Source: an uncultured Candidatus Rokubacteria bacterium (GTDB taxonomy: Bacteria > Methylomirabilota > Methylomirabilia > Rokubacteriales > CSP1-6). From it: a DNA stretch of 64,000 bases. Location of the stretch: the NCBI GenBank assembly GCA_963758635.1, contig CAVWWD010000004.1, forward strand, positions 224,001 to 288,000, written 5' to 3'. The notes under the pieces are model-generated. The model was not told the DNA's origin, searched no databases, and worked only from the letters and a program-made list of their open reading frames with translations. Below are positions 12,253 through 21,419 of the stretch, piece after piece (positions within the stretch are counted from its first letter, which is position 1; each line of letters begins with the position of its first letter). The translations under genes and the position numbers were made by a program.

Positions 12253-14558
12253 GTGGTGCTCGGCCTGAGCGCGGCGGTGCTGATCGCGCTCGCCGCGGGC
12301 CTGGCCGCGCAGGTCGGCCGGCCGTATCCCGGCTTCTTCATCGCGCTGGACCACAGGATCTTCCCGGTGGAAGCGCGCGCGGCCGGGCTCGCCTACGGCG
12401 ATCGCATCGTGGCGGTGGACGGCCGCTCTCCGATGACCCTGGCCGCGCGCGTGACGGAGGCGTCCGGGCCCATCCGCTACGACGTGGAGCGCGACGGCCG
12501 ACGCTTCGTCGTGGACATTGCGCCGCGTCCCTTCACCCGGAGCCATCTCGTCGATCACTTCGCGGGCTACTTCGCGGTGTCCGCCGTCATGCTCGGTCGC
12601 CGGCGTGGCGGTGTTCCGCCAGAACCCCACGGCCCGCCCCAACCGGAACTTCCTCCTCTACATGTGCCTCTGGGCGACCTCGAACGTGGCCGTGCCCGAG
12701 GCCATCCTGAGCCCGCACCGCTACGGAGCGGCGCTGACCGGGTTCGTTCCCACGCTGCTCTCGATCCACGGGTGGGTGCTCTTCCTGACCTACCCGAGCA
12801 CGCCCGCGCGCGAGGCCTGGCTCGAGCGCCACCGCGTGGCGCCGCGGCTCTACCGCGCCGCCGTCGTCGTGGCGGCAGCCGTGTCGGTGGTGTTCACCGC
12901 CGTCTACCTCTCCGCCCCCGCGCTCCTCGCCGACGCTGGCCTCTACCGCGCCTTCCTCTCCTTCCAGTTCGGCCTCGCCGTGATCTCGTTTCCCATCAAG
13001 ATCGTGGCGCTGCTCGACACGCGGCGGCGCGCCGCGTCGCCCCTGGTCAACCAGCAGACCACCGTGCTGCTCCTCGGCATCGGGCTCGGGCTGGGCGGCT
13101 GGCTCGCCTTCATGCTGACGCCGCTCACGCACTTCTGGCAGGGGCCGGTGGACCCGCAGGTGGGCTCCGCGCTGGTGCTCCTGTATCCGGCCGCGATCGC
13201 CTACGCGACCGTCCGCTACCGGCTCTTCGACGCCTCGGTGGTGATCCGGCGCTCCGTCGTGTACACCGCGCTCGCCGCCCTCGTCACCGGCGCCTACGCC
13301 CTCCTGATCGCGGGGGCGAACGCGCTCCTCGCCCAGGCCGACCTCGTCCGCTCGCCGTGGTTCTCGGGCGCGTTCATGTTCGCGCTCGTGCTCGCCTTCA
13401 ACCCGCTGCGGGATCGCGTCCAGCGCGCGGTGGACCGGACCTTCTTCCGCGAGCGCTCCGACCACGCGCGCACCATCCAGGCCCTCGCGCGCTCGATGCG
13501 GAGCCTGCTCGACCTCGACGAGATCACGCGGCGCCTCACCACGACGATCGAGACCGCCATGCACGCGCGCGACGCGCGGCTGGCCCTGGGCCCGCCGGAC
13601 GCCGACCTCGCCCGGGTCCTCGCCGCCGCGCCGGGGGCGCTCTCGCGCTACCAGGTGGCGGCCGACCCGAGGTTCGCGGCGCTGGGGCCCGCCGGGCGCC
13701 GCGCCTGGGAGGCTCTCGACGCCGAGGTGGCGGTGCCGCTCCGCTTCCAGGACGAGCCACGCGGGCTCCTGCTCCTCGGGCCCAAGCGCTCGGAGGCGCC
13801 CTACACGGCCGAGGACCTGGAGGCGCTCGAGACGCTGGCCGACCAGGCGGCGGTGGCGGTGGCCAACGCCGAGGCCCACCGGCAGGTCCTCGACTACGCG
13901 CGACAGCTCGAGCGGAGCCTCCTGATCCGCACGAGCCTCGCCAAGTTCGTGCCCCAGCGCGTGCGCGAGCTGATCGAGGAGTCGCCGGAGGCGCCGTCGC
14001 TCGACAAGCGGGAAACCGACGTTCTCGGTGCTCTTCGCCGACATCACCGGCTACACGCGCCTGTCCTCCCGGCTGGCGCCCGACACGCTGGACGCGCTGG
14101 TCGAGCGCTACTTCGGCGCGTTCCTGGACGAGATCGTCAAGCACGGCGGCGACGTGAACGAGACGGCGGGCGACGGGCTGATGGTGATCTTCCACGAGGG
14201 CGACCACGCGCGGGCCGCGGTGGCGACGGCCCACGCCATCCACGCGCGCGCCGGCGAGCTGAACGCCGAGCTCGCCGCGCGCTCCGACCCGCTCGCCATG
14301 CACATCGGCGTGAACACGGGCCCGGCGCTGCTCGGCGCCACCAAGATCGAGGGCCGCGCGGGCACGCGGTGGACCTACACCGCCTCCGGCCTCACCACCA
14401 ACATCGCGGCCCGGCTCGCCGCGCTCGCCCAGGGCGGCCAGCTCCTCGTGAGCGCGGAGACGCGCGAGCGCCTGGGCGACGACGTCCCCGCCGAGGACCT
14501 CGGCATCCAGCCCCTCAAGAACGTGGAGCGCCCGGTCCGCGTCCTCCGCCTACGGTGA
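12253..14558 (+). CDS. Membrane sensor cyclase: PDZ-like, multi-TM, GAF-like and class III cyclase domains; frameshifts near 12597 and 14025
   Basis: Three ORF pieces join: AGLAYGDRIVAVDG (PDZ), TM region with YATVRYRLFD, GLLLLGPKRSEAPYTAED (GAF), LFADITGYT...GDGLMVIF...NIAARL. Confidence 0.85.
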
Positions 14559-14575
14559 TGGTTCTCACCTCACAA

Positions 14576-14610
14576 CCCTCTCCCCTCGGGGGAGAGGGCA
14601 GGGTGAGGGG
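14576..14610. repeat. REP-like palindromic element (CCCTCTCCCC-N-GGGGAGAGGG-CAGGGTGAGGGG)
   Basis: Perfect stem-loop directly after the cyclase stop; a widespread intergenic palindrome type. Confidence 0.65.
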
Positions 14611-14682
14611 CGGTGGCACAAGCACGCGGGCCGCGCGAGCTGGTTCGGAGATTCAGGAGTCCACCGGGTACACTCGCGGTCT

Positions 14683-15459
14683 ATGGACGCGACTCTGGTG
14701 GCGATGATCGCGGCCGCCCGCGCCGGCGGCGACGCGGCCGCCGCGCACTTCAGGCGTGGCGTGACGGCCAGCCTCAAGCCGGACCGCTCGCCCGTGACCG
14801 TCGCCGACCGCGAGGCCGAGGAGCTGATCGTCGCCCGGCTCGCCCGCGACTTCCCCGGGCACGGCTTCCTGGGCGAGGAGTCGGGCGCGTCGGGGCCCGA
14901 GGGCGCCCGCTTCATCGTGGACCCGATCGACGGGACGCGGAACTTCGTCCGCGGCATTCCGTTCTGGGCCACGCTCGTCGCCCTCGAGGAGGGCGGGCAG
15001 GTCACGGCCGGCGTCGTCTACCAGCCGGTGAGCGGCGACCTCCACGTGTGCCGGCGCGGCGCCGGCGCCTTCCTGAACGGCGCGCGCCTGCGCGTGTCGG
15101 CCGAGCCGGCGCTCGATCGCGCCATGCTCGTGCACCCGAGCCTGACCCTGCTGCGCGGGCCCGACCTGTGGCCGGGGTTCGTCCGCCTGATCGACGCCAC
15201 CGCGCGGCAGCGGGGCTTCGGCGACTTCCTCTGCTTCACCACCGTCGCCGAGGGCCGGGCCGAGATCGGCATCGGCTTGAACGTGAAGCCCTGGGACCTG
15301 GCGCCGCTCCGGCTCCTCGTGGAGGAGGCGGGCGGGCGCTTCACGAGCTGGGACGGCGTGCCGACCATCGCCACCGACCGCGCGGTGGCCACCAACGGCG
15401 CGCTCCACGACCGGACGCTGGCGCTGCTCGCGGGCGGCGCGCGCGAAGGAGAGCCATGA
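14683..15459 (+). CDS. hisN: Inositol monophosphatase family protein, probable histidinol-phosphatase
   Basis: SPVTVAD, GEE, DPIDGTRNFVRGIPFW, RGFGDF and PWDLA motifs. Confidence 0.75.
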   Translation: MDATLVAMIAAARAGGDAAAAHFRRGVTASLKPDRSPVTVADREAEELIVARLARDFPGHGFLGEESGASGPEGARFIVDPIDGTRNFVRGIPFWATLVALEEGGQVTAGVVYQPVSGDLHVCRRGAGAFLNGARLRVSAEPALDRAMLVHPSLTLLRGPDLWPGFVRLIDATARQRGFGDFLCFTTVAEGRAEIGIGLNVKPWDLAPLRLLVEEAGGRFTSWDGVPTIATDRAVATNGALHDRTLALLAGGAREGEP

Positions 15460-16518
15460 CCACCCTCGACGACCTCGACACCCCGGCGGTGACCGTGCAC
15501 CTGCCGGTGATGGAGGACAACATCCGCCGCGTTCAGGCCCTGCTCGCGAGGAACGGCCTCGGCAACCGCCCCCACATCAAGACGCACAAGATCCCCGCCA
15601 TCGGCAGGCTCCAGATGGCGGCGGGGGCGATCGGCATCACGTGCCAGAAGCTCGGCGAGGCCGAGGTGTTCGTCGACGCAGGCGTCGCCGAGGACGTCCT
15701 GGTCACCTACAACATCCTGGGCGCGGCCAAGCGCGAGCGGCTGATGGCGCTGGTCCCGCGCGTGCGCTCGCTCATGGTCGTGCTCGACAACGAGACGGTG
15801 GCGCGCGGCCTCTCCGAGGCGGCGTCGCACCACGGCCGGGACCTCGGCTTCCTCGTGGAGTGCGACACCGGCATGGGCCGGACCGGCGTGCAGACGCCGG
15901 AGGCGGCGCTGGACCTGGCGCGGACGGCCATGCGGCTGCCGCGCCTTCAGTTCCGCGGCCTCATGACGTTTCCGAACAAGGATCCCGACACGCGCGTGTT
16001 CTTCGAGCGCGCGCTCGCGATCTTCGGGAGCGCGGGCATCACGGTGCCCATCGTGTCCGGCGGCGGCACGCCGGCCCTCACCACGATCGAGCGCTTCCCG
16101 ATGCTCACCGAGCACCGCGCCGGGACCTGCGTCTACAACGACGCGATGGCGGTGACGTCGGGGGCGGCCACCTGGGATCAGTGCGCGATGCGGGTGCGGA
16201 CCACCGTGGTGAGCCGGCCCACGGCGGATCGCGCCGTGCTCGACGCGGGCTCGAAGGTCCTCACGTCCGACCAGTACTTCATGAAGGGCTTCGGCCACGT
16301 CATGCAGTACCCGGACGCGGCGATCGCGCACCTCTCCGAGGAGCACGCGGTGGTCGACCTCTCGGCGTGCCCGGAGCGGCCGCGGGTGGGCGACGTGGTC
16401 GACGTGGTGCCGAACCACTGCTGCGTCGTCACCAACATGGTCGACGAGATCCACGGGGTGCGCGAACGGCGCCGTCGAGGTCGTGTGGCCGGTGGCGGCG
16501 CGCGGCCGCGTCAGCTGA
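15456..16518 (+). CDS. D-threonine aldolase / DSD1-family PLP enzyme (alanine-racemase fold); frameshift near 16465
   Basis: LDTPAV, RPHIKTHK, TCQKLGEA, SGGGTP, DAGSK, LSEEH and PNHCC motifs. ATGA overlap with the upstream gene; the C-terminus EVVWPVAARGRVS* is in another frame. Confidence 0.9.
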
Positions 16519-16532
16519 GCGGCGGCCACGCC

Positions 16533-18157
16533 ATGCGCCGGCGCGGGGCCGGGCTCGTGGTGGACGCGCTGGCCTCGGCCGGCGTGCGCCACCTCTTCTC
16601 GCTCTCCGGCAACCAGATCCTGTCGGTCTACGACGCGAGCATCGGCAGCGGGATCGAGATCATCCACACGCGGCACGAGGCCGCGGCCGTGCACATGGCG
16701 GACGCGTGGGGCCGCCTCACCGAGGAGCCCGGCGTGGCCCTGGTGACCGCCGGCCCCGGCCACCTGAACGCGATCTCCGCGCTCTACGGGGCGCGCATGG
16801 CCGAGTCCCCGGTGGTCTTCCTGTCCGGCCACGCGCCGCTCGGCCTCGCCGGCCGCGGCGCCTTCCAGGAGATGGACCAGGTCGGCGCGGCCCGGCCCGT
16901 GACCAAGGCGGCGTGGGTCGCCCGGGACGCCGCGGCGATGGGCGACGACATCGCCCGCGCGCTCCACCTCGCGCAGAGCGGCCGGCCCGGGCCGGTGCAC
17001 GTGAGCCTGCCGTCCGATCTCCTCGAACGCGAGGTCGACGCGCCCGCCGCGGCTCCCGCGCGCGAGGCGGGGGCCGGCGAACCGCCCGCCGCGCTGGGCG
17101 CCGCGATCCGCGATGCGCTCGACCTGCTGTCCGCGGCCGAGCGCCCGCTCGTGCTCGTGGGGCCCGCGATGGGCCGCGGCCGCCGATGGCGGACGGTGGA
17201 GGCGCTCTCGGAGGCCACCGGGATTCCCGCCCTCCTGATGGAGAGCCCGCGCGGCGTGAACGACCCCTGGCTCCACCTCGCGTCCCGATCCCTCGCCGAA
17301 GCGGACGTCGTCCTGCTCCTCGGCAAGCGGATGGACTACTCGCTGCGCTTCGGTGAGCCGCCCGCGTTCGCGCGCGAGTGCCGCTTCATCCAGGTGGACG
17401 CCGACGCCGACGCGCTGGCCGCCCCCGAGCGGCTCGCGCTCGCCATCGCCGCCGAGCCCGAGCGGGCGGCGGTCGAGCTGGCCGCGGCCGCCCGTTCCCG
17501 GTCGTGGGCGCGCCGCGACTGGGGCGACCGGGTCATGGCGGCGCGCCGCGGCGAGCCGGCGGGCTGGGACGAGCTGCGGCGCTCCACGCGCCGGCCCATG
17601 CATCCGCTCCGCGTCTGTGCGGCCATGCAGCCGCTCTTCGACGACGGCGCCATCCTGGTATGCGACGGCGGCGAGTTCGGCCAGTGGGTGCAGGCCGGGG
17701 CCGAGGCGCGGACGCGGCTGATCAACGGGCTTTCCGGGTCCATCGGGAGCGCGCTGCCCATGGCGGCAGCGGCGCGGCTGGCCGCGCCGGACCGCGCCGT
17801 GGTGGCCGCGCTCGGCGACGGGACGTTCGGCTTCCACGCCCTCGAGCTGGACACCGCGGCCCGCTACCGCCTCCCCATCGTGGCGGTGGTGGGCAACGAC
17901 GCCCGCTGGAACGCCGAGCACCAGCTCCAGATCCAGCAGTACGGGGCGGAGCGCACGGTGGGCTGCGAGCTCTCGCCGACCCGCTACGACGAGCTGGCGC
18001 GTGCCCTCGGCGCCCACGGCGAGCACGTGGAGGCGGCCCGAGGATCTCGAGCCCGCGTTGGCGCGCGCGGTGAAGTCGGGGCTGCCCGGCGTGCGTCGAC
18101 GTGGCGATCGACGGCGTGGCCGCGCCGACCTACGGTACGGCTCGAGCCGGGCATTGA
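16533..18157 (+). CDS. Thiamine-pyrophosphate-dependent enzyme (acetolactate synthase/IlvB-like); frameshifts near 18030-18095
   Basis: [24 protein letters not shown] and [11 protein letters not shown] motifs; TPP motif GDGTFGF...VVGND. Confidence 0.9.
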
Positions 18158-18549
18158 CCGGCCGCGACACCGCGACGCCCGCCGGGCCCCGGCCGGATCA
18201 GACCTGGCTCCTGTGGGACGGCGCCTGAGACCTCTGACGACGGTCCGTCGCTTGGGTCAAGCGACAAGACTCCGGTGATCGCGTCCACGCCGTGCCCTAC
18301 CAGGAGGCTCCGTGGCCGCCGATGACGGCCGAGCTCGAGCGGCAGTGCGCCCGCGCCGCCCACGTGATCACTCCCGACGGCCGGACGCTCCGCGCCGGAC
18401 GGGCCAGCCTCCACGTGATGGGCCTCGTGGGGTGGCGCCGCTTCGCCGCGGTCTTCTCGACGCCGCCCCTCGTCTGGCTGGTCGAAGCCGGGTACTGGAT
18501 CGTCGCGCGGAACCGGGGCTTCTTCGGCCGCTTCCTCTTCCGCCGATGA
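18154..18549 (+). CDS. DCC1/DUF393 thiol-disulfide oxidoreductase, candidate selenoprotein with UxxU (TGA at 18226-18228 and 18235-18237)
   Basis: One continuous frame: TTG...WLLWDGA-TGA-DL-TGA-RRSVAWVKRQD...VPYQ...YWIVARNR. Both TGAs sit at the Cys positions of the family DGxCxxC motif. The TTGA start overlaps the upstream stop. Confidence 0.85.
18242..18271 (+). promoter_or_regulatory. Candidate bacterial SECIS hairpin
   Basis: Perfect 8-bp stem GTCGCTTG/CAAGCGAC (18247-18265) with loop GGT, plus a lower stem GGTC/GACT. The loop lies 26 and 17 nt after the two TGAs. Confidence 0.7.
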
Positions 18550-18562
18550 GGTAGGGCTGATC

Positions 18563-19717
18563 GTGACCCAGGCCGATCAGCTGGCGCGATGGGTCGCGCT
18601 GGCGATGGCGGCGGGCTTCGCGCTCTCGCCCGGGCTGTGGGTCTCGACCCGCGCCTATCCGCTGGTGCCGGTGTCCGGCCGCTTGCCCCGCATCCCGTAT
18701 CCGGTCGACGTCGTCGCGTTCGGTGCGCTCTGGGCTCTCCTGGGCCTGATCGCGCTGGCGGGGGCCTTCGCGCCAGGCCTGCTCGCCTTCGTCGCGCTCG
18801 CCGGCGCGCTCAGCCTCTGGGATCAATCGCGATGGCAGCCGTGGTTCTACCAGTACGTGATCATGCTGGCGGCCCTCGGGCTCCACCCGTGGACCGGCGC
18901 GGCGCTCGACACGTGCCGGGCCATCGTGGCGGCCACCTACCTGTGGAGCGGCTTCCAGAAGGTCAACACCAGCTTCGCGCGCGTGACCTTTCCGTGGCTC
19001 GTCGCGCCGATGACCGAGCGGCTCCCGGTCGGGCTCGCGAGGACGGTCGCGTGGAGCGGGCCCGCGGTGGCGCTCGGGGAGGCGGCCATCGGCGTCGGAC
19101 TGCTCGTGGAGCCGCTCCGGGACGTGGCGGTGGTGGCGGCGGTGCTGATGCACGCGACCATTCTCTTGTGCCTGGGGCCGCTCGGCCACCGCGTCAACAC
19201 GGTCGTGTGGCCGTGGAACGTCGCAATGGCGGCGTTCGTCCTCGTCCTCTTCTGGCGGGCGCCGGACGTGTCGACCAGCCGGATCCTCTCCGTGGATCCC
19301 GGGGTGTTCCACGCGCTCGTGGTCCTGCTATTCGGCCTCCTGCCCGCGCTGAGCTTCGTGAACTGCTGGGACTCGTACCTGTCGGCCGCCCTCTACTCCG
19401 CGAATCTCAAGTCGGGCGTGATCTACCTGACCGAGGCGGGGCGGGCCGCGCTCCCGGTGGCCGTAGAGCGCTACGTGGAGCCCGGCGCGGACGGCCGGCT
19501 CGAGCTCTCGCTGTCGCGGTGGTCGTCGGGCGAGACCAACGTGCCCGTCTATCCGGAGGTGCGGGTCTTCAAGGCCCTCGCGCGGGAGGTTTGCCGGCAC
19601 GCGGGCGACGTCGAGCTGGTCGTGCGCTACCGCTCGCTCGCGCGCCTCGTCCGCCGGCGCTCGACGGCGGACCCCGGCGCGCGGGTGATCGTGCGCTACC
19701 GCTGCGGCTCGCTGTGA
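18563..19717 (+). CDS. Polytopic membrane protein, HTTM / vitamin-K-dependent carboxylase-like (DoxX-like core)
   Basis: Multiple TM helices; DQSRWQPWFYQY, YLWSGFQK, GEAAIG, MH and WDSYLS motifs. Confidence 0.6.
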   Translation: MTQADQLARWVALAMAAGFALSPGLWVSTRAYPLVPVSGRLPRIPYPVDVVAFGALWALLGLIALAGAFAPGLLAFVALAGALSLWDQSRWQPWFYQYVIMLAALGLHPWTGAALDTCRAIVAATYLWSGFQKVNTSFARVTFPWLVAPMTERLPVGLARTVAWSGPAVALGEAAIGVGLLVEPLRDVAVVAAVLMHATILLCLGPLGHRVNTVVWPWNVAMAAFVLVLFWRAPDVSTSRILSVDPGVFHALVVLLFGLLPALSFVNCWDSYLSAALYSANLKSGVIYLTEAGRAALPVAVERYVEPGADGRLELSLSRWSSGETNVPVYPEVRVFKALAREVCRHAGDVELVVRYRSLARLVRRRSTADPGARVIVRYRCGSL

Positions 19718-19871
19718 GCCGGGACCGGGACGCCGGCCCCCGCCGCTCAGCGCCGCGCGCTGGCCCAGTCGTCGATCCGCACGCGCCCGACCAGGGCGTA
19801 CGTGCCCGTGGTTGCGCGATCGGGTCGGGCATCTCTCCCGTACTGCTTCGGGATGGCGGTTGGTTCCACTG

Positions 19872-19913
19872 CATTCCCATCTGCGCTCCGCTCGCCTCCG
19901 GCTCGCTGCGCAA
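19872..19913 (+). repeat. Dispersed intergenic repeat family A, copy 1
   Basis: 33/42 nt identical (manual alignment) to 46194-46235; lies between convergent genes. Confidence 0.55.
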
Positions 19914-19927
19914 TTCGCGCCGCATGG

Positions 19928-20653
19928 TCAGGATCTCCGCCGGCGCACGAGGGCCAGCATGGCGACGCCGAGGCCGACCCATGCGAGCGATGCCGGCGCG
20001 GGGACCGACGCACGGACGCCGCCGGGGTGGCTCAGGCTGACGTGCAAGGTGTAGTCGAGTCCGACCTGGGTGCCGCCAGCGGAAAAGGAGGAGTCGCCGG
20101 GGGGGCAACCAACGAGAACCGAGCCACCGCTGAAGCCGTCCGGGCGCGTCAAGGTGATGCCAAACGCGCAAAAGGCGCTGGGGATGTTGGGGAACTGTGA
20201 CACCGCGATGGAGTAGGTGCCGGGTCCGGGCAGGGGGAATGGCCCGAGGAAGGAATCGAGCCCGCTGAAGGTTCCCGGATCCTGCGGGACGGAGTCGGCG
20301 TCGACGCCGATGCGGGTGCCGTTCGGCGTGAACAGCGAGAGCACCGTGTCGAAGCTGAACGGGAAGTTGTCGATGTCGAACAGCGCGGAGCCGCCGGTCG
20401 CGGTGAACGAGTAGAAGTCGACATCGGAGCCGCCGCCGGCGCCCGAGATCGTGGCCGTCGGGAATCCCGGCGGGGCGAAGACCGTCGCGGGCACCGGCGT
20501 CGTGAAGGCCGAGGACGGGATCGCCTGCGCGGTGGCGCGCGTGTTGTTGGTGGCCGTGCCATCGATCTCGAATTCGACGACCGGCGCGGCGAGGGCCGGG
20601 GTTCCCACGGCCACGGCCAGCGCGACGACGGCAAGTCCAGCGAGCGTTCGCAT
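19928..20653 (-). CDS. Secreted PPC/DVUA0089-like protein with a PEP-CTERM-like sorting tail
   Basis: Signal peptide; DVDFYSF, FDTVLSLF and GTYSIAVS motifs; ends VPAPASLAWVGLGVAMLALVRRRRS. Confidence 0.75.
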   Translation of the reverse strand: MRTLAGLAVVALAVAVGTPALAAPVVEFEIDGTATNNTRATAQAIPSSAFTTPVPATVFAPPGFPTATISGAGGGSDVDFYSFTATGGSALFDIDNFPFSFDTVLSLFTPNGTRIGVDADSVPQDPGTFSGLDSFLGPFPLPGPGTYSIAVSQFPNIPSAFCAFGITLTRPDGFSGGSVLVGCPPGDSSFSAGGTQVGLDYTLHVSLSHPGGVRASVPAPASLAWVGLGVAMLALVRRRRS

Positions 20654-20759: not shown

Positions 20760-21419
20760 TCAGCGCGGCTGGGGCACGATCCGGATGTAGGGCTTCGGCG
20801 ACTTCCAGCCGCCCGGGTACTGCTTCTTCGCCTCCTCGTCCGACACCGCCGGGACGATGATCACGTCCTGGCCCTGCTTCCAGTTCACCGGCGTCGCCAC
20901 CTTGTGCTGCGCGGTCAGCTGGCAGGAGTCGAGCAGCCGCAGCACCTCGTCGAAGTTCCGCCCGGTGCTCATCGGGTACGTGAGCATGGCCTTGATCTTC
21001 TTGTCCGGCCCGATCACGAAGACCGAGCGGACCGTCGCGTTGTCCGCGGCGGTGCGGCCCTGCGCGGCGCCCGCCGTCTCCGCCGGGAGCATGTCGTAGG
21101 CCTTCGCCACCTTCATCTCCGGGTCGCCGACCAGGGGGTAGGTGAGCGCGTGCCCCTGGGTCTCCTCGATGTCCCTGGACCACCGCTCGTGATCGCTCAC
21201 CGAGTCCACGCTGAGGCCGAGGATCTTGCAGTTGCGCCGGTCGAACTCGGGCTTGAGACCGGCCATGTAGCCGAGCTCGGTCGTGCACACGGGCGTGAAG
21301 TTCTTCGGGTGGGAGAACAGGATCGCCCATCCGGTGCCGATCCACTGGTGGAAGTCGATCCGTCCCTGGGTCGTGTCCGCAGTGAAGTTGGGGGCCTCGC
21401 CGTTGATCCTGAGTGCCAT
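20760..21419 (-). CDS. 1-Cys peroxiredoxin (Prx6 subfamily)
   Basis: FSHPKNFTPVCTTE, YPMSTGRNFDEVLR and VATPVNW motifs; GGAGGT RBS. Confidence 0.95.
   Translation of the reverse strand: MALRINGEAPNFTADTTQGRIDFHQWIGTGWAILFSHPKNFTPVCTTELGYMAGLKPEFDRRNCKILGLSVDSVSDHERWSRDIEETQGHALTYPLVGDPEMKVAKAYDMLPAETAGAAQGRTAADNATVRSVFVIGPDKKIKAMLTYPMSTGRNFDEVLRLLDSCQLTAQHKVATPVNWKQGQDVIIVPAVSDEEAKKQYPGGWKSPKPYIRIVPQPR

Follow-up and report, generated by a model that had tools for sequence, protein, structure and literature searches.

Arabidopsis DCC1, a protein with a DxxCxxC motif, reduces a subunit of complex I and is described as a protein reductase in the available text of PMC7598583. In SELENOL, two selenocysteine (Sec) residues can form a diselenide, according to the available part of PMC13134290, and the Prx-like thiol:disulfide oxidoreductases (PF00578, NCBIfam NF040769) have either a UxxC or a UxxU motif (PMC13188914, Table 1). 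UxxU is found in three prokaryotic families of the same table, including the metal-binding family NF041115 and the FmdB family TIGR02605. The Group 4 [NiFeSe] hydrogenases also have a UXXU motif, for which a single downstream Sec insertion sequence (SECIS) serving both UGAs has been proposed; tRNA-ReC was found in ~56% of the genomes with such hydrogenases, and the paper warns that Cys may be inserted at one UGA or at both (available text of PMC13582414). Here, we examine a DCC1-like gene with TGA at both motif positions, located in a 64,000-nucleotide stretch of DNA (the window) from an uncultured Candidatus Rokubacteria bacterium (GenBank assembly GCA_963758635.1, contig CAVWWD010000004.1, positions 224,001 to 288,000 of the forward strand). 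All base numbers below are those of the window.

The DCC gene with its two in-frame TGA codons is real, and the observation was confirmed. Its product is very probably a selenoprotein made by Sec-dependent read-through, and Sec is most likely present at both positions of the motif.

The DCC gene, its TGA codons and its relatives

When both internal TGA codons are read as Sec, the gene (bases 18154–18549, plus strand) encodes a DCC1-like (PF04134/DUF393) oxidoreductase of 131 aa that ends at a terminal TGA (bases 18547–18549). Translation, public contigs and a census of related loci place the first internal TGA (bases 18226–18228, plus strand) at residue 25, the first position of the D-G-x-U-x-x-U motif, and the other (bases 18235–18237, plus strand) at residue 28, the second motif position. 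In the window protein the motif is D22-G-A-U25-D-L-U28, with the Sec codons in the Cys columns of DxxCxxC. The likely start codon, TTG at bases 18154–18156, overlaps the TGA (bases 18155–18157) that closes the frame of an upstream thiamine pyrophosphate (TPP) enzyme, an overlap of the coupling type. No promoter- or terminator-like sites were found in bases 14400–20000.

The read-through protein matched PF04134 with a score of 53.3 bits (cut-off 27.8, E 8e-14, profile positions 1–108 of 113), and the match was still above the cut-off, at 33.1 bits, when the stops were counted. The 85-aa tail (bases 18292–18549) that is the sole product of standard open reading frame (ORF) calling scored 21.9 bits, below the cut-off. 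The DCC gene was the only PF04134 match in the whole genome. The interpretation in the first-pass annotation was supported, and each of its three refuting conditions was answered in favour of the gene: the public contigs have TGA and not TGC, the Sec genes are present in the genome, and TGA recurs at both motif codons in close homologues.

Four public runs were compared with the window over bases 17800–18900, using assembled contigs and not raw reads. Two shallow soil contigs (depths of 4 and 8), from runs X1 (study P1; bases 17909–18734) and X2 (study P2; bases 17904–18569), span both TGAs and the hairpin described below with no difference there. Outside the TGAs and the hairpin, 9 letters differ from the window in the X1 contig and 11 in the X2 contig; the latter differs at bases 18224 and 18232, beside the TGAs, yet keeps both. 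A contig from an RNA run (X9) was identical to bases 18293–18527, but does not cover the TGAs and is not proof of transcription, and a further run (X12) had no cover over the TGAs. As one base fewer was found at 18032 and at 18091 in both spanning contigs, the errors of the window near the gene are insertions. This agrees with the earlier argument that the frame-breaking defects in the window are indels. Relative to the two public contigs the insertions shift the end of the TPP-enzyme gene, and a serine-dehydratase-like gene and the TPP-enzyme gene are read as a single 1221-aa ORF (bases 14613–18157).

Related loci were pooled from a genome scan, a metagenome scan (the best 80 of 178), a search of the class and searches of three phyla, and known duplicates were removed. 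Both motif positions held either a Cys codon or TGA in 146/146 loci, with no TAA or TAG at either, and the claim that both TGAs fall on the two Cys positions was thus upheld. The census comprised 106 CxxC, 28 UxxU (the window included), 12 UxxC and 0 CxxU loci. These proportions are unrepresentative: near-copies are among the loci, and of the two patterns used on metagenomes one demanded Cys codons. The first position was TGA in all 40 TGA-type loci and a Cys codon in the remaining 106, while TGA at the second position (28/146) was found only alongside TGA at the first. Close relatives, among them some with the TGA pair, came from records titled Rokuibacteriota, Methylomirabilota, Tectomicrobia and Nitrospinota. 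TGA forms were found in 24 other GTDB genomes from three phyla, 20 with UxxU and 4 with UxxC; 18 belong to the group of the window or bear its name in their titles, five to the phylum of the Tectomicrobia record and one to a third phylum. An unpublished genome (G090), also with two TGAs, was excluded from these counts. The search on the Nitrospinota side gave a match in 24 of 51 genomes, none with an internal stop.

The TGA-type sequences fall into two subfamilies. Subfamily A, with the pattern W-D-G..A-W-V-K-R, includes the window gene. Subfamily B (Y-D-G-D-U-G-L-U..A-R-W-V-H-R) shares 25–31% identity with the window protein. The 10 published genomes in which it was found all belong to a single genus of family f7, and one of them (G052) carries two UxxU copies.

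In the protein collection, none of the 120 retrieved hits had U or X, and masked Sec among the full-length Cys records would be indistinguishable. The motif was missing from 51 of the 120, mostly N-terminally short fragments. The database gene call for the window is the 85-aa tail, and its 90% cluster consists of 10 members, all fragments of 75–85 aa that lack the active site. Cys-type relatives in the database share 49–69% identity with the window protein and bear DCC-family or YuxK names. Public gene calls truncate the DCC gene and lose its active site, an annotation gap.

The candidate SECIS element and the Sec machinery

A candidate in-frame bacterial SECIS was found at bases 18247–18265 (plus strand), where a 7-bp stem (bases 18247–18253 and 18259–18265) closes G-GGU-C (bases 18254–18258). 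A weaker lower stem is predicted by folding at bases 18242–18245 and 18268–18271 (plus strand). The spacing is 25 nt from UGA25 and 16 nt from UGA28, and the folding energy for bases 18239–18275 is -14.6 kcal/mol. The bacterial SECIS model in the available text of PMC13188914 has a loop of 3–9 nt on a stem of 4–16 bp, a G at loop position 1–2 in an N1-G[G/U]N-N2 pattern, a distance of 16–37 nt from the UGA and an energy of -7.5 kcal/mol or lower. The window hairpin lies within all four of these limits for both UGAs.

The hairpin, which went beyond the claims of the first-pass annotation, tracks the TGA state. The stem was scored in 117 distinct coding sequences (5 loci escaped the pattern). 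In subfamily A, 6 or 7 of the 7 pairs were found in 23/24 TGA-type sequences versus 6/60 of the Cys type. In subfamily B the stem is another one, offset by a single base, and 6/6 pairs were found in all 10 sequences versus 0/23 other Cys-type sequences; the stems of the two subfamilies are unrelated in sequence and lie in the same place. The 12 UxxC loci retain the hairpin with only the far UGA present. The peptide does not force the stem, as the stem uses codons that are rare in the genome (GCT, 2.7% of Ala; CGA, 4.9% of Arg) and 100,000 trials of synonymous recoding gave a 7/7 stem in only 0.38%, or 0.05% with Watson-Crick pairs only (p 0.0005–0.004).

Well-supported branches separate subfamilies A and B in the phylogenetic analysis, the first tree of which was a quick version. 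The Cys-type sequences that lie amid TGA-type ones (L072 and L194) suggest reversion; L072 has a TGT codon and an eroded stem. In one UxxC locus (L037, genome G187) the stem has given way to another pairing, of 5 bp, that encloses a G-rich loop, and the nearest neighbour of this locus in the tree is L194, which is CxxC.

Sec machinery was found in the window genome, which is 87% complete, with selA, selB, selC and selD all above their cut-offs, in keeping with the selenoprotein reading of the first-pass annotation. The only tRNA-Sec above the cut-off (67.7 bits) has a TCA anticodon and a G before the CCA, which we take to be a mark of canonical tRNA-Sec. The selB gene is intact (375.6 bits). 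The sole selD found (L019, G000:C3:49749–53510) is part of a fusion gene with an FAD/NAD oxidoreductase-like domain at the N-terminus; it has a Cys motif and one frameshift.

Amongst the TGA-bearing relatives, tRNA-Sec was found in 22/24 genomes and selA in 23/24. No tRNA-Sec was found in G209 and G210 among the 150 of ~900 candidates scored, but both have intact selA and selB; G177 (89% complete) has a tRNA-Sec, and no selA or selB was found in it. Three further tRNA-Sec-like matches (L154 in G010:C45, L155 in G045:C34 and L156 in G116:C9) are of unusual length (98–103 nt, 56–59 bits), and ARAGORN called one as tRNA-SeC, left one unassigned and missed one. These are possibly variant tRNAs.

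Proposed mechanism and rival explanations

A structure model, built from 7 sequences with Cys in place of Sec, has a pLDDT (predicted local distance difference test) of 82 and places residues 25–28 between a strand (residues 17–21) and a helix (residues 26–38). In thioredoxin-type proteins the redox motif lies between the first strand and a helix. Of the conserved residues outside the motif, Cys65 (bases 18346–18348, plus strand) is a third conserved thiol, found in 69 of 73 non-redundant homologues and in 24/24 of the TGA type, and may be a resolving or relay residue. In the C-terminal YxxVARNR motif (bases 18493–18516, plus strand), Y114 and R121 are found in 73/73 and A118 in 72/73, counts that are not independent because a Y/F..A/S..R pattern was a condition for including the 73 sequences. 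With their basic character and moderate hydrophobicity (mean over 19 residues up to 1.0), the C-terminal helices make peripheral binding to the membrane possible.

The explanation that we strongly favour is a thioredoxin-like DCC selenoenzyme in which both UGAs share one SECIS. Translation would be coupled to the stop of the upstream frame and begin at TTG 18154, and SelB with Sec-tRNA on the hairpin (bases 18247–18265) would decode first UGA25, 25 nt from the loop, and next UGA28, 16 nt from it. U25 would attack a protein disulfide and U28 would resolve it, leaving an intramolecular U25–U28 diselenide as reported for SELENOL (available part of PMC13134290). Cys65 may then relay electrons, a guess from its conservation. 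Re-reduction is more difficult for a diselenide than for a disulfide. The enzyme would act on protein disulfides, most likely as a general protein-disulfide reductase, given that the neighbours of subfamily A vary. We infer Sec insertion, one SECIS for two codons and reductase activity for the window gene, while the predicted diselenide follows from the geometry of the motif and the analogy with SELENOL. A gain of Sec at the attacking position first would fit, as no CxxU was seen.

Several results weigh against this explanation. UGA28 lies at the lower spacing limit of the SECIS model (16 nt; available text of PMC13188914). The energy of the hairpin is unremarkable (folding z -0.05 to -1.9, with windows that started one base within the TGA), and across a set of 20 distinct sequences from subfamily A, pairing was kept in 95% of cells with only one two-sided change, a covariation signal not above that of shuffles (117/500). 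An Rfam search of bases 18100–18500 at E 10 gave two chance matches and no SECIS family. The guanines of the loop belong to a conserved Trp codon that is also present in 54/60 Cys forms, and the related sequences in the stem contrast are not independent. In the assembly, selA is split into two pieces by one frameshift and selD also has one. The co-occurrence of Sec genes with TGA forms is consistent but weak because tRNA-Sec is common in the class anyway (118/151 genomes, a tally with four unpublished genomes). The structural matches, mostly thioredoxin, glutaredoxin and glutathione S-transferase N-terminal domains, are weak, the best having a Foldseek E of 0.086 and a Z of 5.7 (root-mean-square deviation 2.8 over 73 residues). 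No Foldseek match for the model was found at E 0.001, and no solved structure related by sequence was found.

A pseudogene or sequencing error, with the TGAs as nonsense changes, would be suggested by the indels of the assembly, two of them no more than 130 bases upstream, and by the frameshifts in selA, selD and a thioredoxin-reductase match. Against this, the identical TGAs recur in two independent contigs and 24 other genomes, neither TAA nor TAG occurs in the 146 loci, the remaining frame is intact and conserved and the hairpin follows the TGA state, and we give this explanation scarcely any weight. General reassignment of UGA to Trp or Gly has even less claim and can be regarded as negligible. 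Matches to release factor 2 stayed below the threshold of that family (293 of 370 bits at best; another is broken into three pieces), which would favour it, but TGA ends 1957 of 2686 long coding-like ORFs, so UGA is not reassigned; the tRNA-Trp anticodon is CCA and the TGAs align only with Cys.

Two other explanations accept SECIS-dependent read-through. One or both UGAs might be read as Cys, through selC* or tRNA-ReC, or UGA28 might be poorly decoded, giving UxxC, CxxC or a mixture and no diselenide. The frequency of tRNA-ReC in UXXU-hydrogenase genomes (available text of PMC13582414) makes this conceivable, a second tRNA could be missing from a genome that is 87% complete, and the family can do without selenium at position 28, as its UxxC and CxxC members indicate. 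With a single tRNA-Sec above the cut-off, its anticodon TCA, and with the second tRNA-Sec-like match in a UxxU genome (G022) proving to be tRNA-Ser, we consider it improbable; TGA at position 28 in 28 loci from three phyla is hard to explain if it merely lowered yield. It is also unlikely, if a little less so, that both Sec are inserted into a site that binds or traps soft metals or metalloids (Hg, As) or feeds a detoxifying enzyme, and that the protein is no general disulfide reductase. The subfamily B UxxU gene lies behind an ArsC-like gene in 9/10 loci with MerB-like, MerF-like and ArsR-family genes nearby, and a UxxU 'metal-binding protein' family has been catalogued (PMC13188914). However, those loci all come from one genus and represent one evolutionary event, the annotated loci of subfamily A, to which the window gene belongs, are without such neighbours, and plant DCC1 is a protein reductase (available text of PMC7598583). 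The metal or metalloid role and the general reductase role are compatible and not exclusive.

A wider scheme is speculative and we think it doubtful. It holds that these proteins are uncatalogued diselenide oxidoreductases with one SECIS for two UGAs, that Sec was gained twice, with unrelated hairpins in the same place and each time at the attacking position before the other (from CxxC through UxxC to UxxU), and that one branch is the dedicated, selenium-based electron donor of a neighbouring arsenate reductase. As to independent origins of subfamilies A and B, the tree separates the two, but a single clade of all 24 TGA-type sequences was not rejected (p-AU 0.054, where AU is the approximately unbiased test).

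Genomic context and comparison with known systems

Downstream of the DCC gene, a gene for a 384-aa membrane protein (bases 18563–19717, plus strand) is probably co-transcribed with it and is not a conserved partner, as no homologue was found in the flanks of 121 other loci (at most 3 kb and often shorter). This protein had no Pfam or NCBIfam match; its look-alikes in the Atlas had scores of 0.95–0.96, with MauE in 12–35% of members. A 1-Cys peroxiredoxin gene (bases 20760–21419, minus strand) lies 2.2 kb downstream of the DCC gene. The annotated loci of subfamily A have no conserved neighbour, and the neighbours change; in one relative (L025) a gene for an HTTM-domain protein precedes the DCC gene.

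In subfamily B, the UxxU gene was found directly behind a gene for an arsenate-reductase-like low-molecular-weight protein tyrosine phosphatase (ArsC-like) in 9/10 loci. The ArsC-like protein matched PF01451 (E 9e-24) and scored 137.7 bits with TIGR02691, below the cut-off of 174.3. MerB-like genes were found in 5/10 of these surroundings, MerF-like genes in 3/10 and ArsR-family genes in 3/10. The order in L157–L166 (family f7) is phosphate-uptake genes, ArsC-like, UxxU DCC and then, in convergent orientation, MerF-like, MerB-like and ArsR-family genes, and the phosphate-uptake genes include a PhoU/DUF47 fusion in 4/10 subfamily B loci. This arrangement hints that the subfamily B protein may be a reductant for metalloid detoxification in its one genus.

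The genome of the window looks rich in selenoproteins, with ~25 further genes that have TGA at a redox motif, on contigs C3–C11. When coding-like sequence was surveyed for internal stops at x-x-C motifs, 33 TGA and 22 TAG rows came up, of which ~25 TGA and 0 TAG rows resembled redox motifs by eye; the survey undercounts, as it missed the DCC gene itself. Of 20 hand-picked TGA genes, 18 matched an NCBIfam family and seven scored above the threshold set for a named selenoprotein family (UGSC, SelW twice, reductase A and B, ArsC-like and PDO). The types recognised by eye included several UGSC, TlpA, DsbA, AhpD, SelW, GrdA/GrdB-like and Prx. A small exported protein (L174, G000:C3:879764–880399, plus strand) has TGA in K-S-P-T-U-G-C-C and a 9-bp hairpin; it had no NCBIfam match, and its family was not noticed in the 119-family table of PMC13188914. 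Its motif resembles those of DUF411/CopG-like metal-binding proteins, and it is possibly a further uncatalogued selenoprotein. A MerB-like lyase (L191, G000:C11:215784–216332, plus strand) has an in-frame TGA near its C-terminus (P-P-F-L-U-T-G-M), a 7-bp hairpin with a GGTC loop and a weak SaoL match (34.7 of 140 bits, residues 7–81 only). On the minus strand of G000:C8, at 410450, an in-frame TGA follows C-Y-R-C-P in aminotransferase-like sequence that is coding-like on both sides.

PF04134, DCC and DUF393 are absent from Table 1 (119 families, complete) of the 2026 review PMC13188914. DCC and DUF393 have no mention in the available text of PMC9312934, PMC7539508, PMC13326102, PMC13745706, PMC12013277 and its four supplements, or bioRxiv 10.64898/2026.04.03.716425. 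A literature search that combined DCC, DUF393, PF04134, COG3011 or YuxK with selenoproteins found nothing relevant, though further selenoprotein compilations could list the family, and NCBIfam (June 2026) has no model that matched the window protein or a subfamily B protein. If the favoured explanation is true, the gene adds a family to the prokaryotic selenoproteome, and few other proteins of the thioredoxin type have a pair of Sec residues within a single motif. Relatives with CxxC, UxxC and UxxU occur in nature (~60% identity, same hairpin) and make testable both whether one bacterial SECIS can serve two UGAs three codons apart and what cellular role a diselenide that needs re-reduction could have.

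The window protein is like the DCC1-like/DUF393 proteins (PF04134, 'DCC family thiol-disulfide oxidoreductase YuxK') in its profile match and in the position of the D-x-x-C-x-x-C motif, and differs in having TGA at both motif codons with a SECIS-like hairpin behind them. SELENOL and the Prx-like proteins (PF00578, NF040769) have a thioredoxin-type fold that bears a UxxU motif with a pair of Sec residues, an arrangement that the window protein would share. The window protein gave no match to AhpC-TSA (PF00578) or to SelL-related or other NCBIfam models at E 0.1, and may work like SELENOL while standing outside the SELENOL family. Two UGAs three codons apart are also found in NF041115, TIGR02605 and the Group 4 hydrogenases, but these are described as having metal-binding or regulatory sites on other folds. 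The first-pass view that two Sec in one motif are rare is right in that the arrangement is uncommon, but UxxU had already been described in the three prokaryotic families of PMC13188914 and in Group 4 hydrogenases (available text of PMC13582414). The single-Sec form differs as well, as CXXU is common in the Group 4 hydrogenases in that text, while only UxxC was found among the DCC loci (12 versus 0 CxxU, n=146). Compared with the bacterial SECIS model as given in the available text of PMC13188914, the window differs in that two UGAs, at 16 and 25 nt, fall in the range of a single element. The fold family and the recoding system are known; the combination of DCC with the rare double Sec is uncatalogued.

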